A DNA stretch of 64,000 nucleotides, taken from the IMG/VR virus record IMGVR_UViG_3300035695_000001, positions 50,139-114,138 of that record; one strand, written 5' to 3'. The notes below the pieces were generated by a model. That model ran no database searches, was not told the origin of the DNA, and was given only the letters and a program-made list of their open reading frames with translations. The number at the start of each line of letters is the position of its first letter. The stretch's first letter is position 1. This document shows, one piece after another, positions 17,528 to 60,061 of the stretch. Both the position numbers and the translations under genes were made by a program. Origin of the DNA: a virus.

Positions 17528-17528
17528 C

Positions 17529-20723: not shown

Positions 20724-22808
<2,085 letters not shown>

Positions 22809-23458: not shown

Positions 23459-24163
23459 TCAGCCGGCCTCGGCTTTTGGGGCCTCCGCCTCCGCCTTGGC
23501 CTTGACGAGCGCCGCTTCCAGTTCGCGGATGCGCCGCTCGGAGGCGTCCTTCTCGGCGTCCTTGGCGGCGACCTTGGCGGCGAGTTCCTTGGCCTCGGCG
23601 TCCTGCCTGTCCATGCGGGCCTGGATGGCGGCCAGAGCGTCGAGGCTCACCGGCTCGCCGACGACGCCGTGCCCCTTCAACTTGGCCTCGGCGACGCCCT
23701 GCTCGTGGGAGCGGACGAGCGAGAAGTGGACGTCGGGGGGGGGCGCCCCCATCTTGACCAGCAGCGGCGCGTGGCCGCCGATCACGATGCCCGTGCGGTC
23801 CGTCGTCTGGATGGCGCGGTCGTACTCGGAGGACAGCGCGACCGACTCCCCAGGCTTGATCTCGACGTGCTGCCACGCCGTCTTGGCTGGCCCAGGCCCC
23901 TTGAAGAGCTTGAACTTGACGGTCTGGTCGGTCGTGTTCTTCCAGACGGTCGTGCCCACGGCGGTCACGCCACCGGACACGCGGAGTTGCTCGTTGCTGG
24001 CCCGGAGGCGGTCGTTCTCGGCCCGAAGCCGTTGCAGTTCGTCGGTGTACTCGGACATGGTCGTACCTGGTTCTGGGAGAAAGGTGGCCGCGTCGACCGC
24101 AGCGAGGCTGGCTCGCGCCGCCTCGCCCATGGCCTCCGCGATCTTGAGCAGTTCAGGGCGCAC
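23459..24163 (-). CDS. Hypothetical capsid-associated protein
   Basis: Directly after the MCP; coiled-coil termini. The start may be at MSEYTD. Confidence 0.6.
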   Translation of the reverse strand: MRPELLKIAEAMGEAARASLAAVDAATFLPEPGTTMSEYTDELQRLRAENDRLRASNEQLRVSGGVTAVGTTVWKNTTDQTVKFKLFKGPGPAKTAWQHVEIKPGESVALSSEYDRAIQTTDRTGIVIGGHAPLLVKMGAPPPDVHFSLVRSHEQGVAEAKLKGHGVVGEPVSLDALAAIQARMDRQDAEAKELAAKVAAKDAEKDASERRIRELEAALVKAKAEAEAPKAEAG

Positions 24164-24169
24164 GCGACA

Positions 24170-25234
24170 TCACGAGGGGGAGATGTCGGCGATGTACCCG
24201 TTGGCGTTGGGGTGCTCGACGCGAAGCTGGACGCGGACCCACACGTTGATGGGGTACGAATCGCCGTTCTTCGGGAGCACCTCGACGCGGAGTTGGAGGT
24301 TGACGGGCTGCTGGGTGTCGCCCGGCCCGAGGCCGGTGCCGCCGAACGCGGTCATGTCCTCGCCGAGCGTCTCGAACATCTCGGGGATGGCGCGGGGCAG
24401 GGCCTGAAGCTCGATCGTGTCGTTGTTGAGCATGATGAGCTTGTCGGCCGGGCAGGAGATGTCCGGCTCCAGCGGGATGTTGTTCCAGAAGAGCTTCTGG
24501 GTGCCGGCGCCGAACTGCTGCGGCATCTCGCCCGCGGTCTGCACGCGCTGGATCGGCGTGAAGAGGCTCTGGTACTTGGAGTGGACGGCGTACGAGCAGA
24601 GGATCCGGGTGGGCTCGCGGCCGGAGTTGGTCAGGATCTGCTGGTAGAGGGCCTGGAGCAGCGCCAGCGTGAGGGGGCGCGGGGTGCCGCCGTTGCTGAG
24701 CACGTTGCCGGCCCAGCCGGGGTAGGTGGAGCGGGAGATCCCGGCGTAGCTGCCGGACAGTTCCAGCGCGCCACCGAGCACACCGATCAGGTTCTGGTTG
24801 CCGTTCCCGTCGGTGCCGGTGCCGGTGTAGAAGTCGTCGTTGATGAGCTTGATCAGCCGGGAGATGGCGCCGCCGATCTTGGCGTCGAAGAGCCGCATCA
24901 GGATGTCGGGAGACCCGGGGCTCGTGGCCGCGGCGTCGACCGCGAGTCCCTCGATCTTGGTCGGGGCGCGGTAGTTGGCCCAGGCCAGGGTCGCCGGCAC
25001 GTCGGGGTCGTAGGTGAACTCCGAGGAGCTCACGTCCGAACCCGGCGCGAACGCGGCGGCCGGGGTCTCGGTGGTGGGGAACTCCGCGTCCCACGGCACG
25101 TTCTTGCCAGCCCCATCCACGATCTTGACGCCTTGGAGGGCGACGACCTTGCGGTTCCACTGGAACGCGAGGACACGGTTGAAGAGCTGGCTGAGCGCCG
25201 GGCTCAGAACGGACAGGGTGTCGATGTTGGACAT
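24170..25234 (-). CDS. Major capsid protein (HK97 fold)
   Basis: 354 aa after the scaffold; DFYTGTG...IGVL...YAGISRSTYPGW...LTLALL...G...LFWNNIPLEPD...P...LRVEHPNANGYIADI. Confidence 0.9.
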   Translation of the reverse strand: MSNIDTLSVLSPALSQLFNRVLAFQWNRKVVALQGVKIVDGAGKNVPWDAEFPTTETPAAAFAPGSDVSSSEFTYDPDVPATLAWANYRAPTKIEGLAVDAAATSPGSPDILMRLFDAKIGGAISRLIKLINDDFYTGTGTDGNGNQNLIGVLGGALELSGSYAGISRSTYPGWAGNVLSNGGTPRPLTLALLQALYQQILTNSGREPTRILCSYAVHSKYQSLFTPIQRVQTAGEMPQQFGAGTQKLFWNNIPLEPDISCPADKLIMLNNDTIELQALPRAIPEMFETLGEDMTAFGGTGLGPGDTQQPVNLQLRVEVLPKNGDSYPINVWVRVQLRVEHPNANGYIADISPS

Positions 25235-25283
25235 GGGGATGGGGTCTCCGGTTGTTGCTCAGCCGGCAGGAACGCCCTGCGAC

Positions 25284-26183
25284 TCAGCCGATGAGGGTCT
25301 TGACGAGGCCGGCTTTGACCGCCTCGCGCATCTTGTCTTCGGGCTTGGTGGGCTGCGGCGGCGCACGCCGCCCACGGATGGGGCTCCCACCGCTGCCACC
25401 TGGATCGATGGGCGGGAGGATCGCCTCGGCCTCCGGCGTCTTCGCCCACTTTTTGAGGCCCTTATCGATGGGCTGCTCCTCGCCGTCGTCGTCGATGTAG
25501 ACGAGCTTGGAGCCCTTGCCGCCGTCGTCGTAGGCGATGCGCCCGTCGGTCTTGAGCACCGTCCACGCCAGCTTGACGCGCACCGGGTCCTTGACGCCGA
25601 TGTGCTCGGAGATGGCGTCCTTGGCCCTCGTGACGAGTGCCTCGGACCGGCGCTCGGTTTCCGCCTGCTCGCGGGCCTTGCGCTCTTCGGAGGCGATCTT
25701 GGCGGCCTCCTTGGTGGCCTTCTTCTGCTCCTCCAGGGCCTTCTTCTGCTCCTCCAGCAGCGCCTGCCCCTTGGCCTGCTCCTCGCGCAGGGCGAGGAAC
25801 TCGGGGTGCTTGCTGAGGTCCACCGGGGCGAGGGGCTGCTCCCCATCCTTGGGCTTCGCGGCCGTCCCGGCGAGCGCCGCGATGCGATCGTCCATGGACT
25901 TGGTGACCTTGGTCAGGCGCTCGTCGAGAGCCTTGGTGAACCTCTCGGCGAGCGTCTCCCCGTGGGTCGCCAGTTCCTGCTCGCGCTCGGTCTTGTACTG
26001 GGCAGCGCGCTCGGCCCGCTTCGCCTCCGCCTCCTTCTCCCGCTTGGTGAAGGCGGCATGTGCCGCCTGGTTGGCAGCCGCGGTCGCCTTTTCCTCCGCC
26101 GTCTTGGCGGCGAGCGCCGTGACCTCGTCCGCGGAGAGGGTCTTGTTCTGGTTCTGCCCCGGAGGGGTGATCGGATCGGCCAT
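25284..26183 (-). CDS. Capsid scaffolding protein
   Basis: Start re-called at MADPITP. Charged coiled coil ending GLKKWAKTPEAEAILPPIDPGGSG; immediately upstream of the MCP. Confidence 0.8.
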   Translation of the reverse strand: MADPITPPGQNQNKTLSADEVTALAAKTAEEKATAAANQAAHAAFTKREKEAEAKRAERAAQYKTEREQELATHGETLAERFTKALDERLTKVTKSMDDRIAALAGTAAKPKDGEQPLAPVDLSKHPEFLALREEQAKGQALLEEQKKALEEQKKATKEAAKIASEERKAREQAETERRSEALVTRAKDAISEHIGVKDPVRVKLAWTVLKTDGRIAYDDGGKGSKLVYIDDDGEEQPIDKGLKKWAKTPEAEAILPPIDPGGSGGSPIRGRRAPPQPTKPEDKMREAVKAGLVKTLIG

Positions 26184-26389
26184 GGGTCTCCGTTCCAGCG
26201 TTGGCTCGCGCTGGCTCGTAAATCGGTCTGGTTCGGCAGCAGAGCGCGGTACCGACACCCGCGCGTGCTGTGCGGCTTCAGGGCGCCGCAGCCCAACCCG
26301 GCGAGGTCCGGGAGCCCATCGGTGGTGCTGCTACTGCGATGCGTGGTCAGGCACCGACAAGCCTGGCCATGCGGTCCGGCCGAAGCCGG

Positions 26390-26938
26390 TCAGCTCTTGC
26401 TCTTGGTGGTGCCGCCCATGTTCTTGTAGACCACCATGACGGCGCCATACGGCGCGGAGTAGCGATCCCAGTAAGGCATCACCGCCTCCTTGGCCTTCTC
26501 CCATGTGCTCTCGTCCTCGATGAACGACGGCGGGTTGTCTGGGCGCTCTGGGTTCGACGGATCCTTCTCGACCCAGGCCCGTTCCTCGTCCGAGAGCCCG
26601 GCCATCAGGTCGGCGTCTTCGAGCCGACTCGCACCGCTCACTTGCTGGGCGTGCATGTCGTACCAGGGGTCCCCAGGCTGGAACGTGGGCACGTAGCCGA
26701 CGTAGGCAACGGGGTCCTGGCCGACCTGCTCGTAGGCCAGGAAGCGGTGGTGCCCGTCGGGGATGTGGTGGACGCCGTCGGGGGTCTCGACGAGCACCAT
26801 CGGTTGGAGTTTGCCGCCAGCCTGGAGCGTGGCGACGAAGTGTGCGACGCGGTCGGGCTCCTTGGTCGCCGTCCACGTCTCGCGGTCACGGGTGTCTACC
26901 GTGTGGATCGGTACGATCTTGGGGCCACACCATTCCAT
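26390..26938 (-). CDS. ParB/Srx-like nuclease-domain protein
   Basis: RVAHFVATLQAGGKLQPMVLV...IPDGHHRFLAY is the ParB-N signature. Confidence 0.8.
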   Translation of the reverse strand: MEWCGPKIVPIHTVDTRDRETWTATKEPDRVAHFVATLQAGGKLQPMVLVETPDGVHHIPDGHHRFLAYEQVGQDPVAYVGYVPTFQPGDPWYDMHAQQVSGASRLEDADLMAGLSDEERAWVEKDPSNPERPDNPPSFIEDESTWEKAKEAVMPYWDRYSAPYGAVMVVYKNMGGTTKSKS

Positions 26939-26941
26939 GGG

Positions 26942-27577
26942 TCAGCCCTTCACCTTCACGCCCGTCGCCCGGCCCGCGAACGGAGCGCCGCCAGTGGCGC
27001 GCTTCACGATCCGGTCGTCCAGTTCATCGTCGTCGTACTCGCCACGCATGTGCCTGTTCATGTCTGGCGACCCGAACCGCCACGCATCGACCGGCGTGTA
27101 GTGCATGGCCTCGTTCTCTGGATGCGCTGGTCGTGCATCGGCAGGGAGGTGGTCGACCTTCTCCACCTTGATCGCGCGGAACGGGTCGTGCGCCACCATC
27201 GACATCAGCCGACCCATCTCTGCTCGCTGCGCTGCGTCTCCGCCAGCGGCAGCGTGGTGGTCGAACTCGAACTGGATCGCAGTAAGATCGACTTTGAATA
27301 CACCGTCCGCCGTCTGCACGTAGTTGAGGAAGTGGCCAGGCACCGACCCGACGTAGGCGTCAAACCCGTTCGCCTTCGCGACCGTGGCGAAAGCATCTGA
27401 TGTCGCGCCGCACTGGCGCACTGACTTCGTCAGCAGGATGTGCTTGTGGACGAAGTAGGGGACCTCTTTGTTGAGGAATGAATCCAGATCCGCAGAGGAC
27501 TTCTGGTCCCCGCCGCCTTCGCTTCCACCGCTTGTCCACTGTCCGTTGGCGGCGCGCGCCTGCTCCTGGCTGCCCAT
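26942..27577 (-). CDS. Papain/transglutaminase-like Cys-His-Asp enzyme with N-terminal RxxxGxW motif
   Basis: QCGATS...PGHFLN...VDLTAIQF gives a C-H-D order; N-terminus QARAANGQWTSGG. Confidence 0.65.
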   Translation of the reverse strand: MGSQEQARAANGQWTSGGSEGGGDQKSSADLDSFLNKEVPYFVHKHILLTKSVRQCGATSDAFATVAKANGFDAYVGSVPGHFLNYVQTADGVFKVDLTAIQFEFDHHAAAGGDAAQRAEMGRLMSMVAHDPFRAIKVEKVDHLPADARPAHPENEAMHYTPVDAWRFGSPDMNRHMRGEYDDDELDDRIVKRATGGAPFAGRATGVKVKG

Positions 27578-27579
27578 GG

Positions 27580-28260
27580 TCAGACCCGCAGCACGCCGTC
27601 AGCGCCACGCTGGATCTCGGAGCCGTCGGTCACGAACCTGGAGGCTCGACCAGCCTCCGGTGCCGGCGCGGCCTTGCCCATCGGGTCGGAGCGCACCCAG
27701 GCGATGGCCTCTGGCGGGAAGTCTTCGGCGAGTTGCTCGTAGACGTCCTCTTGCGCTTGCTCCGATGTGGGCAAGCCTGCGTCGACCTTCCACGACCACT
27801 TGAGCACCGCGCTCTGGATCGTCATGACGTCGTTGGCCGCCGCCTGCATCCCGAGCGCGAGCAGATCCTTGATGGCCTGCTCCGCCAGCGCGAGCCAGGC
27901 CGACGAGCGGTTGACCACCAGCGCCCCGAGCACGCAGCCCTCGACGACCCCGCTTGGCCACGGGCGGAGCCTGGTGCTGGCCGCCAGTTCCTCGACGGAG
28001 CCAGACGACTGGCCGCCCAGTTGCTCGACCAACTCGGCAAGGGTGTCCGCGTATCCGTCGAGCGCCTCGGCGTAGTCCCCGATCAGCCGGTGCAGCGCCA
28101 CCGCCTCGCACCCGCGAACACGGTGGTGTCCCGCATAGATCCCGGCCCTGAGCACCTGTACGTCGATGCTCAGCCCGTCCAGGATGGCGACCGCGCTCCG
28201 TCGCACGTCGTCGTCGAAGTGCCGCATCGGGGAGCGGCGGAGGATGGGCGGTTGGGCCAT
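27580..28260 (-). CDS. Dps/ferritin-like protein with C-terminal extension
   Basis: GHHRVRGCEAVALHRLIGDYAEALDGYADTLAELVEQLGG aligns by eye with the Dps HWNVxG...LH...D...AER...LGG signature. Confidence 0.8.
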   Translation of the reverse strand: MAQPPILRRSPMRHFDDDVRRSAVAILDGLSIDVQVLRAGIYAGHHRVRGCEAVALHRLIGDYAEALDGYADTLAELVEQLGGQSSGSVEELAASTRLRPWPSGVVEGCVLGALVVNRSSAWLALAEQAIKDLLALGMQAAANDVMTIQSAVLKWSWKVDAGLPTSEQAQEDVYEQLAEDFPPEAIAWVRSDPMGKAAPAPEAGRASRFVTDGSEIQRGADGVLRV

Positions 28261-28263
28261 GAG

Positions 28264-30189
28264 TCAGGGTCCGGCTGGCGTGGGTGCGCCTGGGCGCGGC
28301 GGTGGAGTCTTGGCCGGTGGCGGCTGAGCCTTGCCAGCGGGCACGGCCGGCTTGCCTGGTTGGGCAGTGGGCCCCTTGCTCGGCGCGGCGGGAGCCTTGG
28401 CTGCCGCCTTCGCCTTGGCGGTCTGAGCCAGCGCCGCGGGGGACGGAGGAGGGGGGCGCCTGGGAGGGGTCGGACCCACGGGCCGCTGTGCCGCAGTTGG
28501 AGCGACCTTCGCCGCACCGGGGGACGGAAGCCCCTGCTGCTGGGCCAGCGCCGCAGCCTGAGCAGCGGCGTCTGCCTTCGCCTGCTCTGCGTCAGCGGCG
28601 GCCTGTTCCAGGTGGGCCTTCAGTTCCCCGATGATCGTGGTCATCGTCTGCTGCGAGACGCCTGGGAGCCACTTGCGGAACCACCACGACCAGTATTCGG
28701 CCTTGGCTGTCCCGCTGGGGAGATCCATCGGAGAGCCAGGACCGGCACCGAGGATCTGGACGGCCTCGCCGAGGAGCGCGGCACGGTCCTCGTCTGGGTC
28801 GAACTGGTCCAGACCGTGGACCGCCCACTTGACGTTCTCGCCGCGGGCGTCGGAGATGATCTCGTAGACCCTGCGCGCAGCGTCCCGAAGGATGGCGGCC
28901 AGGGCCTTGAGCACCACGCAGAAGTCGTTGTTGTCGGCTGACTTGCTCTCCCCAGACCGGCCCAGCGCGGTGGACGTGTTGGAGATCGACGCGGCCATCT
29001 TGCCGGTGACCCGGAAGATTTCGTCCGTCAGGTCTTGGAGTTGGGTGGCGACGATCTGGAACGGGGCGGTATCCGGCCCCTCGAAGGCGAGTTTGTCGCC
29101 CTGGGCCAGGACCACGAACCCCTTCGACTCGTACTGCTTCTTTGGGTCATCGCCGCGGGACTGCTGCTGGGCGACGTCGGCTGGGAGCGGGCCGTGGAAG
29201 GCCCCGGTCTGCGGGCCCAGATAGACCACCGGGATCGTGATCAGGCTGCGCTGCTGGGCGGCGAGGAGTTCGGACCGGCGCCGCCACAGTTCCAGGCAGA
29301 GGAGGCCGGCGAGGTTCCCCAGCCAGAGAGTGTCCGGCAGTTCGATCTCGACGATGGGGATCTCACGGAACGTCGTCGGGCCGGACTGCTCGGCGATCTC
29401 GACCTCGACTTCCGGCTGTGGCTTCTTCCCCTTGACGATGGGGACGTTGTACGTCGTCCAGGTGACCTGGCCGTTCTCGTCGAGGTTCCAAACCTTGTAG
29501 ACCTCGACTGGGTTGTCGACGGGGTCCTCTGGGGTGGCCCGGCGGGTCTCGATCTTCCTGGTGATGCACCAGGAGAAGCGACCGACCGTGAAGCGAGCGG
29601 TGCCACCACCGTCCAGCGGAACCGCTTGCCGGACCTGGTCGTGGTACTCCCACCAGAGCATCTCCTCCGGTGGCATCTCGTACACGTACGGCTGCCCGAG
29701 CCCAGCCGACTTGGAGTCCGCCCGGTTCTTCGGGGCCGGGCCAGTGTTGGCCGGGAAGTCTACCGCGATCAGCGCCCGCTTCTTGACCAGCGCGGTACGC
29801 AGCGTGTCCTGGAGCACGCCCACGAAACTGGTCCCGCGAAGGTCGGCGTCGTCGGAGAGCGCCTCGTACACCTCTGGCTCGGGGACTTCCCCTGGGGTGT
29901 TGGGGTCGTCAGCGTCTCCCGCCGGGGTGACGGAGACCGGCCCAGAGAACATCGCCGAGGCGTACTGGTTGACGATCTGGCCAAGGTAGCCGACGTAGCC
30001 CGCCAGATCCTTCCGCGCCTTGTAGCGTTCTGGACTCTCGCCTGGCGCTTTCTTCAGGTACTTGTCGACGTTCTCCTGGATCTGGATGCCGCCGCAGTAG
30101 AGGTCGTCCAGCGTCTCCCACCAGGCAGCATCGTAGCCGCGACAACCGTCGGACTTGCCGCGCTTGGCAGAGAGGAGGCCGTACTTCAC
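28264..30189 (-). CDS. Portal protein
   Basis: WWETLDDLYCGG...YLKKAPGESPERYKARKDLAGY, DDADLRGTSF, FREIPIV, SGESKSAD; Pro/Ala/Lys-rich tail. Confidence 0.9.
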   Translation of the reverse strand: MKYGLLSAKRGKSDGCRGYDAAWWETLDDLYCGGIQIQENVDKYLKKAPGESPERYKARKDLAGYVGYLGQIVNQYASAMFSGPVSVTPAGDADDPNTPGEVPEPEVYEALSDDADLRGTSFVGVLQDTLRTALVKKRALIAVDFPANTGPAPKNRADSKSAGLGQPYVYEMPPEEMLWWEYHDQVRQAVPLDGGGTARFTVGRFSWCITRKIETRRATPEDPVDNPVEVYKVWNLDENGQVTWTTYNVPIVKGKKPQPEVEVEIAEQSGPTTFREIPIVEIELPDTLWLGNLAGLLCLELWRRRSELLAAQQRSLITIPVVYLGPQTGAFHGPLPADVAQQQSRGDDPKKQYESKGFVVLAQGDKLAFEGPDTAPFQIVATQLQDLTDEIFRVTGKMAASISNTSTALGRSGESKSADNNDFCVVLKALAAILRDAARRVYEIISDARGENVKWAVHGLDQFDPDEDRAALLGEAVQILGAGPGSPMDLPSGTAKAEYWSWWFRKWLPGVSQQTMTTIIGELKAHLEQAAADAEQAKADAAAQAAALAQQQGLPSPGAAKVAPTAAQRPVGPTPPRRPPPPSPAALAQTAKAKAAAKAPAAPSKGPTAQPGKPAVPAGKAQPPPAKTPPPRPGAPTPAGP

Positions 30190-36699: not shown

Positions 36700-38655
36700 T
36701 CAGGCAGGGGGCATCGCGCCGGTGCTCCGGTAGACTGGCGCCGGCATCGCTCGGCTCAGCACCGCCCAGGCGATGGCAGCGGTGAGCACGAGGTCGTCGT
36801 TGCTCCCGTTCTTCGCCCTGGCCTTGCCCCAGGCGTCAACCACGAAGGTCCGGAACTCCTCCAGCACCTTGACGTCTGGGGTCCGCCAGTTCCCGACGCG
36901 GTGGTCCTGCTCCAAGCCTGAGAGCGCGGCCTCTCGGCTGGGGCCGGTGGTGACCCACCCCTTCTTCCCGTCGGCGTCGGCCCAGATGTTTGGCCAACCG
37001 ACCCAGTCGGCCCGCGCCCACTCGATCAGGCGCTTGGCGAAGGCTGGCGCGACCCTGGCGATCTCCCGCAGGTCTTGCGACGCTTCGACGTCGCACAGCC
37101 TGGCCTCTATGCAAGCACGGTCGCCGACCACGTCAGCGATCATCTTCGGCCTGGCCATCTCGTCGATGGTGGAGATCCCGGTGTTGTTTTTCTCGATGGC
37201 GATCCAGGCGTTGCCGTACCGGATGGCCAAGGCGACAGCGAGCCGGCCCAGTTCCTTCGGCTTCACTTGTCCATGCAGCGTGGCTACGTGCCTTGGGCGC
37301 GCCCCCCGGGTCCACACCTGCAAGGCGGCCGGGTCGCCACCCTCGCCGCCGCTGGTGTCACCCGCGACGAGGTAGCTCTCCTGCTTGTCGTAGTCCTCGA
37401 AGATCCGGAGCCCGTAGGAGGCGCCGGCCCTGCGAACCTGAATCACCTTCGGAGGCTTGGCCTTCTCCTTCGCGGTCGCCTCGCCGATGAGGTGCTCTGT
37501 GACCTCCTTGGCGAAGTAGCCGGTGCCCGACGCGATGAAGCATGTGATCGGGTCGGTGGGCATCTCCTTGTCGACGCGCATCTGCCCCTTGGCGCGGACC
37601 TGGGCCCGGTACCACTTGAGAAACTCCATCGCGATCGTCGTGATGGACTTGGTCCCGCGTTCGATGAGACTCAGCATCGTTTCCTCCTTGGAAAGGTGTT
37701 CATGGAGCAGGGCCCAGCACTGCTCCTCGCGGACGCGGCGCTCGTCGATGGGCTGCTGGTCGGGCGTGACCGTCTCGCCTTCGTCGAGCGGCAGGCGCCG
37801 GTTTGGCAACTCGAACCACGCGAAGAAGTGCGGCGTGAACTCGTCCCCCTCGGCGGACGTGGCCCGCTTCCACATGCGGTGGAAGTAGGCCCCACCACGC
37901 GGGTCGTCGTCGCTCGTGCTGACCCCGTTGGGAGTCGACTCGATCGTGACCTCGGTCCCAGGTGCCGGCGCGGTGACCGAGTTGAGCACGCTGTCCATGG
38001 TGGCCGCAGCGACCTCCCAGAAGGCGATCTCGGTGCAGTGCAGCCGGTGCGTGGTGCCACCGCGGCCCTTCTTGTCGGCGGTGTGCTCGCTGGCGCCGGC
38101 CTCCAGAACCTCCAGCACTCCGCCGCCAACCGTCGAGGAGAGCGCCCACCGCCCCTTGCCCCCGGCCTTGGCTTGGAGCGGGATGTCGAGCCCCTTGTCG
38201 ACCAGGCTCTTGAGCATGAGGTCGATCGTTCTGGCGAAGTCCTTCTGCATCCCGTGCTCGCTCTCCGTCTGCACGATGACGCGGACGTTGGCCCCTGGGT
38301 GCATGAGCCAATACCAAATGTCGCGGCCGATCTCGACGGTCGACATGCCCAGCTTTCTGGCCTTCAAAACTTGGTCCCTACCCGTGCGGGCAGCGTCGAA
38401 GTCTCGCTGGAGCTGCGTGAGCACGAAGGGGACCGGCCGGCCCGCCATCTCGCCTGGCTTCTCGCCTGCCTCGGCTGCTGGCACGCTCAGGTGCCCGCAG
38501 AACCCGACGAAGTCCCCAGCGTACTTCTCCCTCAGCGCGGCGAGGGTGGAGAGCGGCTTGCTGTCCCAGTTCTCCAGCAGGGACAGGGTCAGGTGGACGA
38601 GGTCGTCCAGACTCTTGGGGCCTCTGGGCTGAGGGCGGGCAGCAGCGCGGGGCAT
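36700..38655 (-). CDS. terL: Terminase large subunit
   Basis: VLKARKLGMST (Walker A), LHCTEIAFW (Walker B), IESTPNG (coupling motif); nuclease motifs GDTSGGEGGD, IEKNNTG, NDDLVLTAAIA. Confidence 0.95.
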   Translation of the reverse strand: MPRAAARPQPRGPKSLDDLVHLTLSLLENWDSKPLSTLAALREKYAGDFVGFCGHLSVPAAEAGEKPGEMAGRPVPFVLTQLQRDFDAARTGRDQVLKARKLGMSTVEIGRDIWYWLMHPGANVRVIVQTESEHGMQKDFARTIDLMLKSLVDKGLDIPLQAKAGGKGRWALSSTVGGGVLEVLEAGASEHTADKKGRGGTTHRLHCTEIAFWEVAAATMDSVLNSVTAPAPGTEVTIESTPNGVSTSDDDPRGGAYFHRMWKRATSAEGDEFTPHFFAWFELPNRRLPLDEGETVTPDQQPIDERRVREEQCWALLHEHLSKEETMLSLIERGTKSITTIAMEFLKWYRAQVRAKGQMRVDKEMPTDPITCFIASGTGYFAKEVTEHLIGEATAKEKAKPPKVIQVRRAGASYGLRIFEDYDKQESYLVAGDTSGGEGGDPAALQVWTRGARPRHVATLHGQVKPKELGRLAVALAIRYGNAWIAIEKNNTGISTIDEMARPKMIADVVGDRACIEARLCDVEASQDLREIARVAPAFAKRLIEWARADWVGWPNIWADADGKKGWVTTGPSREAALSGLEQDHRVGNWRTPDVKVLEEFRTFVVDAWGKARAKNGSNDDLVLTAAIAWAVLSRAMPAPVYRSTGAMPPA

Positions 38656-38658
38656 GGG

Positions 38659-38973
38659 TCAGCCGCCGATCTCCGTAACCGTGACGTCTTCGATCCACCC
38701 AGGCTGTGGGTTGAACGGAGCGGTGATGCAGACACGCATCGTGGCGAAGTCGATGTGGGCCTCGACGCCCTGGTCAGGCCAGGCGTTGGCCACCTCGACG
38801 GCGAGTCGGCTGGGCGTCAGCGTGTCGGCCTCGGGCTCACGCTCACCAGGCGCAGGGTCTGGCGCGTAGCGCTTGTATTTCGACAGGAAGACGTGAGCCT
38901 CGCCACGCATCCGCTCGAAGTGGCCTTGCGCGGCAAGGGTGTGCATCAGCGCTGCCTGTGCCACGGGCCTCAC
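38659..38973 (-). CDS. Hypothetical protein
   Basis: GTGA-coupled ORF immediately upstream of terL. Confidence 0.5.
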   Translation of the reverse strand: MRPVAQAALMHTLAAQGHFERMRGEAHVFLSKYKRYAPDPAPGEREPEADTLTPSRLAVEVANAWPDQGVEAHIDFATMRVCITAPFNPQPGWIEDVTVTEIGG

Positions 38974-39611
38974 GTCGCCTCCTCCGCCTTCGGCGCCTCG
39001 ATGACGATGGCCGGCGCCCACCCGAAGTGGCAGGTCCGCCAGTCGGGCCCGTAGGCTTCCGCGGCGGCCATGGCGTAGCCGTCCAGGTAGTCGCGGCGCT
39101 GGTCCTCGGGAACGTACTCGGGCGCGACCAGGGCCGTGGCGCGGGCAGCGAGCCCACCCGCCGAACCGAAGGGGTTGTGCTCACAGGCGTCGAGCGCGCA
39201 GTTGGTGGCGCCCCAGTTGTACGGCTCGGGGGGAGGGTCCTGCCAGGTGACCTTGGTCTTGCCGCCATGGCCGTGGATGCAGACCACCTCGGCCATGCTG
39301 TCGTAGATGGCGACCGACGAGTGCTTGGTCAGCCAGGACAGTGCGACCCTGCCGTTGGAGAAGCGGATCCCCTCGGCGACCCGGCCGGTACCTGAGACCC
39401 CGCTCTCGTCGTCGGAGCGGTCGAGCCAGAACCGGATCGTGGTGGGGGCGCTCTGGGTGGCGACTTCGAGGAAGCGCTCCGCGGCCTGCTTCTCGCCCGC
39501 GTCCTGGATCTTGAACTCGTAGACGATCTCTCGCGGCCGGATCTGATCGCGCGGGTTGGCTGGCTCGACTGGGGGCGGCGGAATGGTGCTGGGAGGGTGG
39601 GGGGCGTCCAT
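38970..39611 (-). CDS. Phage hypothetical protein
   Basis: Contains DESGVSGTGRVAEGIRFSNGRVALSW...IHGHGG, a motif I recall from many phages. TGCTAGACT lies 7 nt before the ATG. Confidence 0.7.
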   Translation of the reverse strand: MDAPHPPSTIPPPPVEPANPRDQIRPREIVYEFKIQDAGEKQAAERFLEVATQSAPTTIRFWLDRSDDESGVSGTGRVAEGIRFSNGRVALSWLTKHSSVAIYDSMAEVVCIHGHGGKTKVTWQDPPPEPYNWGATNCALDACEHNPFGSAGGLAARATALVAPEYVPEDQRRDYLDGYAMAAAEAYGPDWRTCHFGWAPAIVIEAPKAEEAT

Positions 39612-39636
39612 GCGCCAGAGTCTAGCACCTCGGTGT

Positions 39637-40494
39637 CTAGCAGTCGTGCTTGGGCCAGCCGATGTCGCGGATGACGGCGTGCGCGTTCGGCTGGTCGACC
39701 ACCAGTTGCGTGACCAGCGTGGCAGCGACGCCAGGTACCTCCCCCTTCTCGCCGCGTGAGAACTGGAACCGCACCGGCGACGAGTCGCCCACCCGGAGGT
39801 AGTTCAGGCAGACGTGGTCTGGTTGCAGGAGCACGATGATGCCCCGCGGGAACCGCTCGACGTTGGAGAGGCGCATGCCTACCTGCTGGAGCACCTTGCC
39901 GGCAGCGTCCATCGCGTCGGGGTTGCCCACGGCCAGCGTGGGAGCCGTACCGCTGGCGGTGACGCAGTAGTTGACTGCCCGGGTCGCCAGCGCCGTCGTG
40001 AGGGGCCTCGGCACGCCGCCGTTGGCGAAAACGTTGGCGCTCCAGTGCGGGTAGGTCGATCGGCTGATGTTGGCGTAGACGGCGGTGGCGGCCAGCGCAC
40101 CACCGAGCAGGCCGTAGATGGCCGGGTTGTGGTTCCGGTCGATCCCGTTCCCGACGTGGAGGTCGTCCTCGACGAGACGGGCCAGGGCTCCGAACACCTT
40201 GGTGACCCGCTCACGGAACCGCTCGGCGAGCGCTTCCCGCCCGTAGGTCTCCGCCGCGAGCACGTCCTCCGCCGTGACCTGGAAGGCGGCCCGGTACATG
40301 CCCCACGGGAGGCACGCTTGCCCGGTCGGCCCGGTCACTCCATCGGGGCGTGCCTCCCAGTTGACGTTCTTGCCGTACCCTGGCCGCGCCTCCAAGGCGG
40401 CCATGAGGCTGTTCGGGCCGGCGTGCTTGGCTCCGAACTCGAAGTGGTAGGTGCTGGTGAGGGCTGAGGTGATCCTGGTGGCTGCGTCGTCCAT
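39637..40494 (-). CDS. Major capsid protein paralog (diverged, shorter)
   Basis: GLLGGALAATAVYANISRSTYPHWSANVFANGGVPRPLTTAL aligns with MCP GVLGGALELSGSYAGISRSTYPGWAGNVLSNGGTPRPLTLAL; C-terminal QLVVDQPNAHAVIRDI aligns with QLRVEHPNANGYIADI. Confidence 0.88.
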   Translation of the reverse strand: MDDAATRITSALTSTYHFEFGAKHAGPNSLMAALEARPGYGKNVNWEARPDGVTGPTGQACLPWGMYRAAFQVTAEDVLAAETYGREALAERFRERVTKVFGALARLVEDDLHVGNGIDRNHNPAIYGLLGGALAATAVYANISRSTYPHWSANVFANGGVPRPLTTALATRAVNYCVTASGTAPTLAVGNPDAMDAAGKVLQQVGMRLSNVERFPRGIIVLLQPDHVCLNYLRVGDSSPVRFQFSRGEKGEVPGVAATLVTQLVVDQPNAHAVIRDIGWPKHDC

Positions 40495-40501
40495 CCCGTG
40501 A

Positions 40502-40533
40502 GTCTAGCAGTACCGACGCCTGCTAGACAGTGG
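40502..40533. promoter_or_regulatory. TGCTAGAC inverted pair
   Basis: gtctagca-N11-tgctagacagtgg; on the minus strand TGCTAGACT lies 6 nt before the ATG at 40494. Confidence 0.8.
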
Positions 40534-41368: not shown

Positions 41369-41629
41369 CTAGTCTTTCAGGGTGAAGCGCTGGACGCTGT
41401 CCACCGGCGGATGCTCGGGGTCGAAAGGGTGCTCTACCCGCTGCGGTAGGAGCCGCGGAGGGCCGACCGGCACGACACGGGACTTGGGGCACGGTCGCTG
41501 AGACGGCATGCGGACCGTCGGCGGGGCGGAGATCGGCCCCGAGGCAGGAGGTGCCTCGATGGCATCGGGGGAGGACGGGTCGATGCTTGCCACGGCCGCC
41601 AGCATGAACAAGCCAGCGCTCAGGTACAT
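41369..41629 (-). CDS. Small putative exported protein
   Basis: Hydrophobic N-terminus MYLSAGLFMLAAVAS, then Pro-rich. Confidence 0.4.
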   Translation of the reverse strand: MYLSAGLFMLAAVASIDPSSPDAIEAPPASGPISAPPTVRMPSQRPCPKSRVVPVGPPRLLPQRVEHPFDPEHPPVDSVQRFTLKD

Positions 41630-42099
41630 CGGGAGCCTCCCGGTTCCGGCGTGGTGCTGGTCGAGCCTGCCCACTGCACCTCGACGGCACCGATGACCAC
41701 CCCGTCAGGCTTGGCGGGCTCCCTGCGGTCCACGCCGTAGAGGATCGCGAGGTCGTCCAGTTCTGGCCCCGTCGCGAGACACAGGTTGACGGCGCACAGC
41801 GATGGCATGAAGCCGGCCGTGGCCTTGTGCAGCATCCAGTAGACCTCGGAGCCCTTGCCGTACTTGGCCTGGGCCTCCTCGCGCCGCTTCACGCGCTCCG
41901 GGTAGATGGCGTCGAGGACCCGGTCACGGAGCGCGGCGCTCGTCTCGCCAACCGTGGGGACGATCCCCATCCCGCTGGCTTCGCGCTCGATCTCCCTGCG
42001 CTCGATCCACCTGCGCTCTCGGCGGTTGCGCGGGTACTCGAACTGCCAGTGGCCCGATGACCCCTTGCGGAACGGTCGGCGGTGCTTGTGCTGGCTCAT
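41620..42099 (-). CDS. Hypothetical protein carrying baseplate-J-like motifs
   Basis: GETSAALRDRVL and LATGPELDDLAILYGVDRREPA. Confidence 0.55.
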   Translation of the reverse strand: MSQHKHRRPFRKGSSGHWQFEYPRNRRERRWIERREIEREASGMGIVPTVGETSAALRDRVLDAIYPERVKRREEAQAKYGKGSEVYWMLHKATAGFMPSLCAVNLCLATGPELDDLAILYGVDRREPAKPDGVVIGAVEVQWAGSTSTTPEPGGSRCT

Positions 42100-42188: not shown

Positions 42189-43302
42189 GTGATCACCTTG
42201 CCGAGCGCCTCGCCCAGCGTCTGCCCGCGGGTTGTCTGGTGGTGCCCGCCGCGGACGTTGCCCAGTTCTAGACGGGAGGCGTGCTCCTCGTAGACGTGAA
42301 CCTGCACCGTGAAGGTGCCAGCCCCGTCGGGGTCATGTCCTCGCCGAAGGGACAGGGTCGCTAGCTCCCCGTCGTCCAACAGCCGGCGCACCCTGGCACC
42401 GATCTCTGCGTCGCTCATTGTGCCCTCAGCGCGGCGGGCAGGATCGACGTTGCCCAGCCGTATTCGTTGAACTGGTACGGGCTGAACTTGTAGCCGCTCG
42501 CCATGCACGGACACCACTGGCGCCCGTGCTCGCAGAGCCAGATCACGCCGTAGCGGACGAGGATCGAGCGCCTCATGCTGGCCCCAATCTCGGCGCGCCG
42601 ACAGGCACCACGTTCAACGCGAACAGGGTCGACGACGTGGCCCCGCAGTCCCCCATACAGGCATAGAGCGGCTCGACGGTGCCGGTCAGACGGATCTCCC
42701 CGCCGCAGGTACAGGCCAGATCCTGGACGGTACCGCAGACCTCGCGCTCTCGCTCTGTGGTTGCGAAACGCTTGACCTTTGCGCTGCTCACGCTGACTCC
42801 TTCGGCGGCACCTTGGAGATGACGATCTGATCGTCCACGACCGCGATCTGGACCTCGCTCCCATTCCAGGTTGGCATGATGCGTTGGACCAGGAGACCGG
42901 CAGCAAGGTTGAGGCTGTCCTTGCGCGAGTACACCACCGGGTCGAAGTGGGACCCGTCGTCGTCGAGCGACTCCTGCTCGACCTTGAACTGCGCATCCTC
43001 GGTCATCCCGAGGCTCATTCGGACCTTGCTCATTGCGGCCACCTTCCTGGCTTGACCATGTCGAGGACCATCTCCCACGCCTCCTGCTTGGCTTGCTTGT
43101 GTGGCGCCTTCATGTGGATGGCGGCGTGCCCGGTGATCGTCCGGATCGCCACCATGTTGGAGCCCTCGCATCCGCCGCAGTCGCAGAGCCGGACCACCAG
43201 GCTGGCGCTACCGTCTCGCTTCTTGAAGCGTCGGACGATCGCCCCCGGGACGTGGTCGCGGAAGTGCAGCGAGAGCAGGTAGACGTACTCGCGAGAGGTC
43301 AT
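42185..43302 (-). CDS. Run of five small coupled hypothetical genes (43030-43302, 42788-43033, 42573-42791, 42415-42576, 42185-42418)
   Basis: Each starts in an ATGA/GTGA overlap with the previous stop; several carry Cys pairs. Confidence 0.6.
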
Positions 43303-44207
43303 CGACGTCCGATCGCCACGATGGGCTCGCGACTGCTCACGAAGCCAGCGATGGGCGCGCCGGTCCCCCCGAAGTAGTAGACCCCCTCGCCGCTCCCACG
43401 CGAACTGGTCCTGATCTCCACCCCGCCGTCGGGACGGCCACGAACGCCGACAGGGGCGCCCATGATGCCCTCGAAGACCACGTCGGGTACGAAGGCTGGA
43501 CGCTCCGTGCTGCCGGCGAAGACAGCGAGAGGGCCTCCGTTGCCGGCGTCGGCCGGCGTCAGCGGGAGCGCCATCTGCGGGTTGGCGTCGGGCGAGACGG
43601 GAGAAGCCTCTGGCACCTCGTCGGACGCCGCCCCGGGGTGGTCGGTCTCCCGCTTGAGGGCGAGGTAGGCCCACGCCGCGATGGTGAGCAGGTCTTCTCG
43701 GCGAGGGAGAGGCTCGATGTCGGCGTCCGGGTCGTCTCGGAGGGCCTCGTCATCCTGGAACATCTCGGCGGCGTTCCCGATGTTGTCGACCAGCACACCC
43801 AGACTCTCGGTCTTGCCGAGGCCGCTCCCGAGCCGCCGGGCCTCCGCCTCGATCTCGCCGTGGAGTGACGTGGTCGGCCCCGGCTCCAGCGCGATGGGCA
43901 GGGCGAGTTGGCCCCGCATGGTGCGGGCGTGCTCCTTCACCTCCCGGAGCATCTCCTGGGCGTAGTCGTCCCCGTTGTCCAGGCTCCGAGCCAGGACCAG
44001 GAAGGTCGCCTCGGACAGGTTCACCATCTCCAGCGTGCGCTTGCCCAGCAGCGTGGCCACGCCGAGGAGCGTCAGCCGGACCTGACTGGAAGCCGTCATC
44101 GAACCGGCCGCCTCGCAGAGCGCTGCCGAGGCCCGGAGCAGCCTCGCCTGTCCTGCCCGCTGGCAGCAGAGATCCCATCCGTCGTCCACCTTGTTCTGGT
44201 CGCTCAT
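43299..44207 (-). CDS. Hypothetical protein with possible degenerate MazG-like helical domain
   Basis: EIEAEARR...LGVLVDNIGNAAE...REDLLTIAAWA resembles the MazG pattern but lacks the EExxE acidic residues. Confidence 0.5.
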   Translation of the reverse strand: MSDQNKVDDGWDLCCQRAGQARLLRASAALCEAAGSMTASSQVRLTLLGVATLLGKRTLEMVNLSEATFLVLARSLDNGDDYAQEMLREVKEHARTMRGQLALPIALEPGPTTSLHGEIEAEARRLGSGLGKTESLGVLVDNIGNAAEMFQDDEALRDDPDADIEPLPRREDLLTIAAWAYLALKRETDHPGAASDEVPEASPVSPDANPQMALPLTPADAGNGGPLAVFAGSTERPAFVPDVVFEGIMGAPVGVRGRPDGGVEIRTSSRGSGEGVYYFGGTGAPIAGFVSSREPIVAIGRR

Positions 44208-44491
44208 CGTCGGCCTCCGAGGTCGATGCCGACCGGCTGGATGTCCTCAGCGATCTCTTCGAGGAACTTGAGCGCCGCGTGGAAGGCCGAATCGCCCTCC
44301 TGTCGCCACGATGCGACGCTATCCACGATCTCCCTGGCCAGTGCTTCGTCCGCAACTAGCGCTCGCCGGATAGCGTCCGCCGTGTCCTCGCCATCCCTGG
44401 CCTTCACCAGTCTCCTGACCTCGGCGTGCGCCTGCTCGCAAAGGCACCCCGGTCCGTGCCCTGCCCACTTACCGCTGGTCTTGTCGTCCAT
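44204..44491 (-). CDS. Hypothetical protein
   Basis: Start re-called at MDDKTSGK; TGATG-coupled. Confidence 0.55.
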   Translation of the reverse strand: MDDKTSGKWAGHGPGCLCEQAHAEVRRLVKARDGEDTADAIRRALVADEALAREIVDSVASWRQEGDSAFHAALKFLEEIAEDIQPVGIDLGGRR

Positions 44492-44709
44492 CACATCCTC
44501 GTCTCCTCTTGCCGTGCCACCGAGGCGTACGGCTCCCCGCTCTTGCCGTTGGTCCAGGTCGACCCGCATCGGCCGCACTTGAACCTGGGACGCCCGTCGG
44601 CCGCAGGCGCCGCCATCCGGATGATGTCGGTGTGCCTGCACGACCCGCAGCACGTCTTGGTCCGGCGCGGTTCCTTGGCGGCTCGGCGTCGCCCCCTGCT
44701 CTTGCCCAT
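44491..44709 (-). CDS. Small Zn-ribbon protein
   Basis: CGSC...FKCGRCGSTW; starts just after TGCTAGACAGT. Confidence 0.65.
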   Translation of the reverse strand: MGKSRGRRRAAKEPRRTKTCCGSCRHTDIIRMAAPAADGRPRFKCGRCGSTWTNGKSGEPYASVARQEETRM

Positions 44710-44712
44710 CCG

Positions 44713-44752
44713 CACTGTCTAGCACAAGGTCGTCCGGTTGTGCTAGACAGTG
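44713..44752. promoter_or_regulatory. TGCTAGAC palindrome at a divergent junction
   Basis: cactgtctagcacaa...ttgtgctagacagtg, perfect 15-bp inverted repeat. Confidence 0.85.
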
Positions 44753-44820
44753 GACCGAGAGAGCGGGCCGGCACCGGCGAGAAGGGTCGCCAGCACCAGG
44801 CCCGACGTGGAGTCTACCTC

Positions 44821-45195
44821 ATGGGACAGATGACGTATGCGGTGATGCTCGGCGTGAAGAAGGCCCCTCCGGCAAAGCTGAAAGAGGGCTGGCACAGCCT
44901 GGTGGAGGGCTACTCTCGTGAGAACAGCAAGGATGGCCCCACCCCCGACACGCCTCACGGGGATGGCGATCATGAGATCCTCGGTTTCTTCGTCGCGGTG
45001 GGCGCCAGCGGGCACGACTTCGCGCCGGACCTCGTGAACTTCCCACTGAAGGACTTCGGCAAGCAGGAAGACTACAAGGGGTACCTGGCTGCATGCCGCA
45101 GGTCGTGGAAGCGCTTCGCTGCGTGGTGCGAGAGCAACCACAAGATCACGCTGGGCGAGCCCATCCTCTACCTGGTCCAGACCGAGGTCGGCTGA
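44821..45195 (+). CDS. Hypothetical protein
   Basis: GGAG RBS; starts MGQMTYAVML. Confidence 0.7.
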   Translation: MGQMTYAVMLGVKKAPPAKLKEGWHSLVEGYSRENSKDGPTPDTPHGDGDHEILGFFVAVGASGHDFAPDLVNFPLKDFGKQEDYKGYLAACRRSWKRFAAWCESNHKITLGEPILYLVQTEVG

Positions 45196-56790: not shown

Positions 56791-59700
56791 CTAAACCGCG
56801 CCCGCGTGCGGGGGGGTGGTGTCTGACAGCATGGTCAGGGCCCGCTGTTCGGCACGGGCGAAGGCTTCCTTGCCCTTGCGGCGGACGAGGTGGTCATAGA
56901 TGGCCCGGCCGAGGAAGAAGAGCATGGTTGCGAGGCCGAGGACGACGCAGGCGTAGTCGAGCCAGGTAGCGGTGGCTGGCTCGTGCCACAGGTGGCGACC
57001 GAGGGCGACGAGCATGTTGCCGGAGGCGAAGCCGGCGACGTTGTCCCGGTGGCCGACCTTCAGGCTCTTTCGGATGGCGAGGAGGTCTTCCTTGGGGGCC
57101 GTGATGAGGACGGCGCGAGAGATGTCGGTGTCGGTCACTGGTGTGGATCCTGGTGGGTGGCTCGGGCTGCTTGTTGGGCTGCTCTGAGTCGGTAGAGGGC
57201 GGTGCGGAGGGTGAGGAGGGTGGCCTTCCAGGCGGTGGTTTGGGTCTGGAGATCGGCGAGGGCTCTGTCGGCGGCGTCTCGGAGGGCTGGTGGGGGTTTG
57301 GGCAGGGGGATGGTCTCGAAGAGGTCGTAGCCTCCGATGGCGAGGTTTTTAACCTTCATCCATCGGGTGGTCATGCGGAACCCTTTGGGTCACGGGAGGA
57401 GACGCCGCAGTCGGGGCAGGAGAAGCCTCCCCCGGTGAGTTTGACGGCGCGGGGGTGGAAGACGACGAGGGTGTCTGGAGGGAGGGTGGATGTGGTGGAG
57501 CAGAGGGCCTCGTCGTGGTTGAGGAGGTCGCTGTTTTGCTTGGGGCCTTGGACGTGGATCACTGGCTGACCTCCTGGAGGGTGGCGGTGACCCTGTCGAG
57601 GAGATCCTGGGGGACGTTGCCTTGGATGAGGGCGACGACCCCAGCAGCGAGGATCTCGGAGGGGTCAGAGGAGAAGCCGTTGGGCTCACCGCGGAGGCAG
57701 AGGGCCGCGAGGAGGACAGCGTGGTCGAGGGTGCGGGGGAGGTCGTCGTCGAAGGCTCGACGGAGTTGGGAGATCCGGTCCTCGGCAGCCTTGCTGGGCT
57801 CGTGTCGAGCCTGGGGCGCGTTTGGGATGGTGGTAGGGAACGGCATGTCAGGTCTCCGTGGCGACCGGCATCCAGGTGGTGGGAGGGCGCCCGAGGTGGT
57901 CGACCAGTTCGGAGTACGAGAAGCCGCCGCGCTCGGCGAGCCTCTCCGCCGTCTGGTCTTTGCCGTAGCGCTTGGCGTAGTCGTCCCACGCCTCGACGTG
58001 CTCCGCCCACGCGATCGTTCCGCGGTGGTGCCGCGGGTCGTCGGCGGGGTGGAGCTTGCAGGCGTAGGGACCACGGGTGTAGCTCCCGCATGACTCCTTC
58101 TGGACGGGGGCGCGTCGACCGTTCGGGCCAGGGGACTGGGCCTCGGACAGGACGCGGGCACAGGTTGCGGCATCCTCTGCGGTCTTGAAGAGGAGCGAGG
58201 CGCGGATGGGGGAGTTGGGGCCGTCGTGGTAGGTCGTGACCTCGACGTAACGGCCTTGGGCGACAGCGCTCTCGACGAGGGGCCGGCTCATGGGCGGGCC
58301 TCCTGGCTCTGGCCGTGAACCGGGCACGGCTTGCCCTTACTCAGTGGACCGCGGGCCCACTCGCAGCCCCGGCAGGCTTCGCCGGAGGCAGCGGTGGGCG
58401 TCGTCCAGCGGTACCCGTCCGGCTCGACGATGACGTCCTCGGTGTCCTTGCACTCACAGTCGACGCGGCGGGTGGGGTCGACGACGAGGAAGAAGTGGCG
58501 AGCGTTGCCGGGGTGGTGGTTGTCCTCGTCGTACTTGAGGCCGGTGAAGCCGAAGGCGGTCAGGGCCTGCTTGCAGTGGGCGTCCTTGGGGCGCTTGCCC
58601 TTGAAGCAGACGGAGATGTGCCACTGGGGGCCGGAGTCTCCAGAGCCGTCGGGGAGGGTGGCTACGTCGAGAGAGGAGATGACGGAGAGGAGCCCCTTGG
58701 AGAAGGCGTAGCCGAGGCCACCAGCGGCTCGGCCGTGGGAGGTCCAGCCTGGGCCTGAAGGGGTGCGCTCGCGGGGGAGGTCGGTGTTCATCGGGAGGGC
58801 TCGTCCTGGGCTTGGCGGAGGGTGCCGGCCGGGCAATGGCAGTAGGACTCCAGCCGGTAGGGGCAGCCACGATCATCGACCTCTGGGTCGGCGTAGAGGA
58901 TGCCGCGGTCGCAGTGGTCGGGGCAGGAGGCGGCGAGGGCGGCGCACTCACCGTGCGATCGGGCTTCGGTCATGGGCGTGGCTCCACGTAGGCAGCGGTC
59001 CAGCCGCGCACGGCGGGCGTCATCGGCCGTCCGCCATCCGCTGCAACCAGCGGTCCAGCGCTTCCTGGTCGAGCCCCGCGGGGCCGGCGTGAACCATGGC
59101 CATCCTGTTGTCCAGAGCAGCCAGGACGCGGACCTCGGTGCAGCGCACGCGCGAGCCGCAGTGCTTCGCGATGGTGGTGACCAGGTTGTCGACCTGGTCC
59201 TTGACGTTGGCGCCGGCCTTGAAGGTCACTCGGAAGCCGTAGGTGCCCCGGAGCACGGGGCGCCGCTCCGCCTCCGGGATGATGGAGAAGCTCTTGGCGA
59301 TCGGGTTGGCCTCCCAGGCTCGACGGGCTTGGGCTTCTAGGTCGTTGAAGAGGTACTCGCTCACGCCCGACCTCCATTCCGAACACGGACGACGGCGTCC
59401 GCGGCTTTGGCGTGGGCAGCCTGGGCGTCCCGCTCGGCCTCCAGTGCCTTCTGGTACTTCATCCTGCCGCCGTAGCGCTCGAACCAGTAGAGCGCCGTCG
59501 TACAGGGAGGGGGAGGCGTCCAGCGCCAGACGTCCCGGCGGGCCTGGTCCAGACGCTCCCCCGCAAAACGCTCGTCGCTCAGGACCCGGTCGAGCGCTTC
59601 GCCGTAAGCGATGGCCGCCATGAGCCCAACGGGCAGCGGGGTCGTGCCCACCAGCATCATCGTGCTCCTACCTTCCTGGCCTGCTTGCGCTCGCGCCTGG

Positions 59701-60025: not shown

Positions 60026-60030
60026 GGGCA

Positions 60031-60061
60031 GAGTCTAGCACAGTGGGCGGGTGCTAGACAG
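60031..60061. promoter_or_regulatory. TGCTAGAC inverted pair
   Basis: gagtctagca-N11-tgctagacag. Confidence 0.8.

Follow-up and report, generated by a model that had tools for sequence, protein, structure and literature searches.

In addition to its canonical major capsid protein (MCP), the phage analyzed here encodes a second capsid-like protein, MCP2 (285 aa; positions 39637 to 40494, minus strand), which is a loop-trimmed paralog of the MCP with a predicted HK97 fold. The evidence points to an accessory role for MCP2 and away from a core one, because we found no ortholog, because the gene is absent from a complete related genome (G004), because it occupies a variable slot beside a gene resembling the anti-CBASS enzyme Acb5, and because it is kin to a fusion protein of the same phage. 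Our preferred reading, held tentatively and at somewhat less than an even chance, is that MCP2 is an optional, fast-evolving, functional duplicate that would act as a capsid mimic without polymerizing and would be used in conflicts.

MCP2 is a divergent paralog of the canonical MCP

The window, the stretch of 64,000 nucleotides to which all positions refer unless stated otherwise, comprises bases 50139 to 114138 of the IMG/VR record IMGVR_UViG_3300035695_000001, a genome of 162,811 bp with direct terminal repeats that is rated complete and has a G+C content of 68%. The host of this phage is probably an actinobacterium, because relatives of the gene at 38970 to 39611, a neighbor of the MCP2 gene, occur mostly in Streptomyces phages. 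The canonical MCP, our reference paralog (354 aa; 24170 to 25234, minus strand), is encoded within a portal-scaffold-MCP-tail block, of which the head block spans 24170 to 30189 and includes a scaffold-like gene (25284 to 26258) and the portal gene (28264 to 30189). It scored above the curated cutoffs of both Pfam SU10_MCP (32.2 bits; cutoff, 24.1) and NCBIfam NF033394 (99.5 bits; cutoff, 80). Between the portal gene and the scaffold-like gene (26390 to 28260, minus strand) lie three small genes, two of which have DNA-binding or ParB-like PHROG matches, a content that is unusual for a head module. Separately, two proteins of the tail region, of 805 aa (15287 to 17704, minus strand) and 694 aa (20724 to 22808, minus strand), have in common a 95-aa segment with 64% identity.

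The first-pass annotation had described MCP2 as a paralog of the MCP, aligning with it over the ISRSTYP.W region and the C-terminal strand, about 70 aa shorter and encoded 14 kb outside the head operon, and each of these points was borne out. BLASTP aligned 169 aa of MCP2 with the canonical MCP at 37% identity (98 bits; E = 4e-28), with the motif pair ISRSTYPhW and ISRSTYPgW inside the alignment. A family alignment of 131 sequences matched the two proteins along their entire lengths, the C terminus (QLvVdqPNAhavIrDI) included, at an overall identity of 31%. MCP2 is 69 aa shorter than the canonical MCP and its gene lies 14.4 kb away, outside the head module and the portal-to-tail block, yet it is co-oriented with the large terminase gene TerL (36700 to 38655, minus strand) and located two to three genes upstream of it. 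TerL itself was assigned through phrog_24361 and phrog_38 and has 73 homologs at E<=1e-20.

The first possible start of the MCP2 frame is the ATG at 40494, and the G+C fractions at codon positions 1, 2 and 3 (0.67, 0.50 and 0.90) resemble those of the MCP and TerL genes. The protein has a predicted net charge of 0 (pI 7.1), compared with -9 for the MCP. MCP2 gave no Pfam match at E<=0.1 and scored 61.4 bits against NF033394, under the cutoff of 80; PHROG MCP families matched it at E values of 4e-7 to 2e-6, over the core only.

MCP2 is predicted to keep a complete HK97 fold with shortened contact regions

The pairwise alignment and structure prediction that had been proposed as checks on MCP2 gave clear homology and a confident HK97 model. 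AlphaFold2, run with the family alignment, returned a complete HK97 fold for MCP2 (pLDDT, 91.7; pTM, 0.89), in which the N-arm, E-loop, P-domain and A-domain are all present and the E-loop and A-domain are shortened; the model of the canonical MCP had a pLDDT of 90.4. The best structural match of MCP2 in Foldseek and VIA-align comparisons was the MCP of cyanophage A-1(L) (7f38; Z = 22.3, rmsd of 3.0, 257 residues aligned). Mic1 (6j3q) matched the model at a Z of 20.2, and at the sequence level 6j3q was matched (E = 6e-45) by a profile made from MCP2 together with its homologs. Encapsulins and HK97 gp5 gave Z values of 15 to 18, and Family 2 encapsulins gave Foldseek TM scores of 0.58 to 0.66.

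The size difference between the two paralogs was traced to three regions. DSSP on the models placed the E-loop strands and tip at residues 43 to 63 in MCP2 versus 45 to 84 in the MCP; a 24-residue MCP loop that follows the second A-domain helix (residues 224 to 247) is absent from MCP2, and another A-domain stretch of about 20 to 25 residues is also gone. Counted between conserved flanking residues, and with medians taken from 103 full-length family members, the E-loop region has 17 residues in MCP2 versus a family median of 34, and the two A-domain stretches have 6 versus 31 and 18 versus 43. All of these deletions are in-frame and within loops, and the AlphaFold2 model is confident across the trimmed regions. 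Among 48 positions conserved in at least 70% of the same 103 members, MCP2 keeps 34, the MCP keeps 45 and the family median is 41. The losses in MCP2 comprise the N-arm Q, N and R of a QxNR motif, G65 and D76 of the E-loop, and A-domain positions (R/G/P/D). The central core is preserved at 22 of 24 conserved positions, and the spine helix, the P-domain sheet and the GxG / YAxI..W..NGGxxRxLT block are all retained.

In HK97-fold capsids, the N-arm and E-loop are laid onto neighboring subunits and the A-domain packs around the capsomer axis. The same roles for these three parts have been described for phage Jabs (bioRxiv 10.64898/2026.07.24.740622) and for the satellite capsid protein Ccm (PMC8569155, PMC5052747). 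Judged from the model, MCP2 thus appears to keep the surfaces that receive a neighbor while lacking much of the parts that would be donated to one.

MCP2 groups with an 844-aa fusion protein of the same phage

A HMMER search of 1.84 billion (1.84e9) representative proteins returned no ortholog of MCP2. The best nonself match (E = 1.8e-24) was to MCPs of 345 aa, and the 164 matches at E<=1e-3 were nearly all MCPs of 335 to 360 aa that matched only residues ~59 to 195 of MCP2. The canonical MCP, unlike MCP2, has database relatives at 61 to 73% identity. Megablast and tblastn searches of INPHARED phages gave no useful MCP2 relatives, a word-indexed protein search with MCP2 returned only itself, and no useful relatives of MCP2 came from pattern scans of IMG/VR in which MCP2, the MCP, TerL, the portal protein and protein P0025 served as queries. 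The MCP2 paralog pairs are 27 to 37% identical, with saturated synonymous sites.

The genome encodes a third paralog, an 844-aa protein at genome positions 42611 to 45145 (minus strand), 5 to 7.5 kb before the start of the window. Its residues 10 to 328 are MCP-like and align with the whole of MCP2. Further along the protein, residues 367 to 441 match the protein encoded at 23459 to 24163, residues 460 to 578 match a 133-aa tube-like virion protein (14854 to 15255) and residues 594 to 702 match a baseplate-hub/DNA_circ_N protein (9983 to 10939). MCP2 paired with the N-terminal domain of this fusion in the trees (SH-aLRT of 92 in one, ultrafast bootstrap of 93 with SH-aLRT of 73 in another), a grouping to be read with a warning of long-branch attraction, as both are long-branched and stand among other long branches; the terminal branch of MCP2 measures 1.2, compared with 0.33 for the MCP. 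A clade of MCP2, the 844-aa domain and the phage's own MCP was not rejected (p-AU, 0.94). The QxNR motif, G65 and R230 are lost from both MCP2 and the fusion, which thus resembles MCP2 both in its tree position as nearest kin and in its motif losses. It differs from MCP2 in that its MCP-like domain is less trimmed (24, 21 and 39 residues in the three regions) and is joined in one chain with copies of three further virion proteins.

The MCP2 gene is absent from a complete related phage

An alignment-based TerL scan identified a complete relative, G004 (IMGVR_UViG_3300010396_000002; 155,559 bp with terminal repeats), whose TerL is 65% identical. The single MCP-family match in the whole of this record is its own 355-aa MCP, and the record contains neither an Acb5-like gene nor an 844-aa fusion. 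As this MCP is only 40% identical to that of our phage, G004 is a distant comparator. A homolog of the 159-aa gene that lies upstream of MCP2 (41620 to 42099) flanks the syntenic slot in G004, and between it and TerL are three unrelated small open reading frames (ORFs). A closer relative, G001 (IMGVR_UViG_3300042090_001664), has an MCP with 73% identity and is represented by an 82-kb fragment; it has one MCP-family gene and no fusion within the 79 kb covered, the TerL side being outside the fragment. MCP2 is thus not conserved alongside the MCP, as judged from the lack of an ortholog among the 1.84e9 representatives and from the one MCP-family gene of G004. Because the closest complete relative found is without it, MCP2 appears to be an optional gene in a plastic region, with the qualification that this sole complete comparator is fairly distant.

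The tube-like 133-aa protein is present twice in G004: besides the structural copy at 149.9 kb there is a spare, stand-alone one, a 217-aa open frame some 1 kb beyond TerL. Within this group of phages, extra copies of virion proteins have thus turned up near TerL more than once, though not of the same protein.

A probable Acb5-family gene and a repeated element adjoin MCP2

The gene downstream of MCP2 (38970 to 39611, minus strand) encodes a 213-aa protein that matches phrog_7499 (E = 8.7e-25) and contains an Acb5-like domain at residues ~51 to 126, preceded by a Pro-rich N terminus and followed by about 85 extra C-terminal residues that are absent from 71-aa stand-alone homologs. An R, a W and an H are invariant between this domain and the 71-aa homologs, with a spacing that fits the essential residues R10, W38 and H61 of Acb5A. 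In the ESM Atlas the protein fell with Acb5 clusters, with a feature score of 0.79, taken as a lead only, and a structural TM score of 0.91 over 80 aa. Acb5 proteins are cGAMP-cleaving anti-CBASS enzymes and are reportedly common among phages that infect Streptomyces, Mycobacterium, Bacillus and Haloarcula (bioRxiv 10.1101/2025.07.12.664507). A tblastn search with the neighbor gene matched 161 phage records with Streptomyces, Bacillus, Haloarcula and Mycobacterium as hosts, the same four host groups as reported for Acb5 (bioRxiv 10.1101/2025.07.12.664507). From its sequence, the neighbor probably belongs to the Acb5 family, and its adjacency to MCP2 is only suggestive of anti-defense. Because Acb5 homologs are also found in late or lysis cassettes, as in phage Dori, the association with this neighbor counts as weak evidence.

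Between the Acb5-like gene and TerL is a small ORF of about 95 aa (38659 to 38946, minus strand) that abuts the TerL start. It had no PHROG match and is kept in G004, where its homolog (E = 8e-9) is at a different position; it could encode a small terminase or another packaging factor. The ORF that contains it (38659 to 39021) has G+C fractions of 0.74, 0.52 and 0.77 at the three codon positions, with a weaker third-position signal. PHROGs gave no match for most neighbors of MCP2, and the ESM Atlas gave no result for the 159-aa protein upstream.

The MCP2 gene is bounded by copies of a repeated element, TGCTAGAC, which has 29 copies in the window, where 0.71 would be expected, and 49 in the genome, with none in the portal-to-tail block. 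Upstream of the gene, a promoter- or operator-like element (40502 to 40528, minus strand) consists of GTCTAGCA, which is an inverted copy, then 11 nt, then TGCTAGACT, with the MCP2 ATG about 6 to 8 nt further on. Downstream are two direct copies (39620 to 39642, minus strand). As the first-pass annotation had noted, the stop of MCP2 falls within a copy of the repeat: the TAG at 39639 to 39637 is inside the first of the two (39635 to 39642). The second reads TGCTAGACT and is located 7 to 8 nt ahead of the ATG of the Acb5-like gene. The arrangement TGCTAGACTC-N5-6-ATGGAC is found at three genes on the minus strand (40495 to 40509, 39612 to 39627 and 60026 to 60040), the third of which is the gene at 59657 to 60025; here the T-variant TGCTAGACTC produces a -10-like hexamer, TAGACT, 6 to 7 nt before the ATG. 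The remaining copies mostly have the form TGCTAGACAGTG, arranged as back-to-back inverted pairs (spacer of 10 to 16) or as direct pairs. The element upstream of MCP2 can be read as an extended -10-like sequence (TGnTAGACT) with a leaderless-style start and is a putative promoter. The leaderless-style layout proposed by the first-pass annotation is present as a layout, and promoter function is put forward as an inference only, because a consensus sigma-70 scan found nothing near MCP2.

Discussion

Our data support MCP2 being a real, intact gene and not a pseudogene remnant, because an intact frame, a coding G+C pattern, a confident HK97 model and a preserved core were all found. The first-pass annotation had named a lack of expression with neutral decay as the outcome that would overturn its proposals, and decay appears unlikely here; the four roles it listed (a minor or vertex subunit, a dominant-negative subunit, a decoy for capsid-sensing defenses and a separate nanocompartment) all keep the standing of proposals. 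The orphan status of MCP2, its long branch, its lost motifs and its absence from G004 would fit a functionless remnant, decaying or neutral, left by the duplication or capture of a capsid gene. The 285-codon frame, however, starts and stops where those of the family do and has its own start signal, the third-position G+C is as in real genes, the core is kept, the deletions are in-frame and confined to loops, and the model is confident across them. For these reasons we regard decay as highly improbable. A separate small shell, encapsulin-like and of T=1 to T=4, possibly enclosing the Acb5-domain protein, is also improbable. MCP2 does resemble encapsulins (Family 2A/2B; e.g., 8T6R and 9BJE) in size and fold (for Family 2, Z of 17 to 18), and the neighbor, a possible cargo, flanks its small enzyme domain with unexplained extensions. 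Encapsulin-fold similarity is nevertheless common to all HK97-fold proteins; all sequence relatives of MCP2 are phage MCPs, there was no Pfam encapsulin match, and the gene resides in a phage genome. The neighbor carries no recognizable targeting peptide or cargo signal, and loss of the N-arm motif and E-loop tip argues against lattice contacts.

MCP2 shares homology, fold and both termini with the SU10/Mic1/A-1(L) MCP family (PF17236, NF033394, phrog_9953; 6J3Q, 7F38), but it is ~65 aa shorter, scores under the curated cutoffs, lacks the QxNR motif, half of the E-loop and two A-domain loops, is encoded outside the head block and is not the main MCP of the phage. The two capsids of this family with solved structures each have the same sequence in every chain of the asymmetric unit (13 chains in Mic1, 9 in A-1(L)), which we read as a single protein building both hexons and pentons. 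Because of these single-sequence capsids, and because the canonical MCP is in the head block, a core shell role for MCP2 is unlikely. Specialized vertex subunits do exist elsewhere. T4 gp24 is a dedicated penton paralog, its gene is in the head block beside that of the MCP, and it is, like MCP2, a second compact HK97-fold paralog. Another such paralog, Jabs MCPp, has 257 aa and is described as having a much reduced axial domain in which the loops are shorter (bioRxiv 10.64898/2026.07.24.740622); the A-domain of MCP2 parallels this reduction. Ccm of SaPIbov5, which is 24% identical to the helper capsid protein, fills pentons and alters the assembly outcome, with a reoriented N-arm and a different E-loop (PMC8569155, PMC5052747). 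Like MCP2, Ccm is a diverged capsid homolog encoded outside the head operon; it differs in being satellite-borne and acting against the helper phage, whereas MCP2 belongs to the phage's own genome and has no satellite-like module around it. The possibility of a satellite capsid gene inserted in the phage was considered and rejected, as BLAST revealed no second portal, protease or terminase paralog in the genome.

By analogy with these proteins, MCP2 might be a vertex subunit, penton or portal-proximal, of the phage's own capsid, present in ~55 copies at the fivefold corners. Its complete fold and paralogy to the MCP, its position just upstream of the co-oriented TerL, and a 163-kb genome that implies a large capsid would all agree with such a role, and the reduced axial domain that the Jabs penton protein likewise has lends this role some probability. 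On balance we consider it unlikely, though worth serious attention. Jabs MCPp (ORF73) is encoded beside MCPh (ORF72) and was shown to be in the virion, whereas the MCP2 gene lies 14 kb from the MCP gene; unlike Jabs MCPp and T4 gp24, MCP2 is an orphan, missing from the complete relative found, with contact motifs lost. No ortholog appeared in any database even though the MCP has close relatives there, G004 manages with one MCP-family gene, both solved family capsids are built from one sequence, and the N-arm motif and E-loop tip lost from MCP2 are conserved parts of capsomer-capsomer contacts. A vertex role would also leave the sister 844-aa fusion without explanation.

The reading of MCP2 as a nonpolymerizing capsid mimic is favored by its orphan status, its absence from G004, the loss of contact motifs, the accessory genes and promoter element around it, and its kinship with the fusion protein, which cannot be an ordinary lattice subunit. 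Since the core surfaces are kept and the neighbor-donated parts are lost, MCP2 might bind partners of unassembled capsid protein without extending the lattice, the candidate partners being its own or a rival MCP, a scaffold or a host factor. A regulated promoter of its own would drive it from a variable accessory slot next to the putative anti-CBASS gene, and it would shield or cap capsid protein in host-phage or phage-phage conflict. We infer the non-assembly of MCP2, its partners and the timing of its expression from these features; a location upstream of TerL on the same strand is compatible with late coexpression. Weighing against non-assembly, MCP2, with its 285 aa, short E-loop and N-arm helix, is of the same size as the assembly-competent HK97 gp5 and encapsulins, so that the trimming is no proof of it. 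A simple immune decoy reading is weakened, because MCP sensors, namely Avs7, Avs8 and Avs10, bind the A-domain capsomer interface (bioRxiv 10.64898/2026.01.04.697583), which is trimmed in MCP2. The anatomy of MCP2 is more in keeping with a protein that shields or caps capsid protein than with one that sequesters sensors.

Capsid paralogs with a demonstrated function are few: T4 gp24 and Jabs MCPp, which form pentons, and Ccm, the size-redirecting penton protein of a satellite. Should MCP2 prove to be a penton subunit, it would be another dual-MCP case, with its gene away from the head module. Here, a phage with an intact orphan paralog whose interface loops are trimmed also encodes a single chain that joins trimmed copies of four virion proteins. 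It is possible, though somewhat less likely than not, that these proteins belong to an undescribed class of loop-trimmed, nonpolymerizing virion-protein copies situated in variable loci by anti-defense genes; this class would include MCP2, the 844-aa fusion (with its capsid, head, tube and hub copies) and the spare tube-like copy of G004. If this is true, the trimmed copies would serve in conflicts with host sensors or rival phages, where they would mask, cap or mimic structural proteins. Bacterial sensors recognize the A-domain interface of the MCP and the tail-tube hairpin (bioRxiv 10.64898/2026.01.04.697583), and copies without the sensed parts raise the question of whether phages may use stripped virion proteins to manage immune sensing or assembly.
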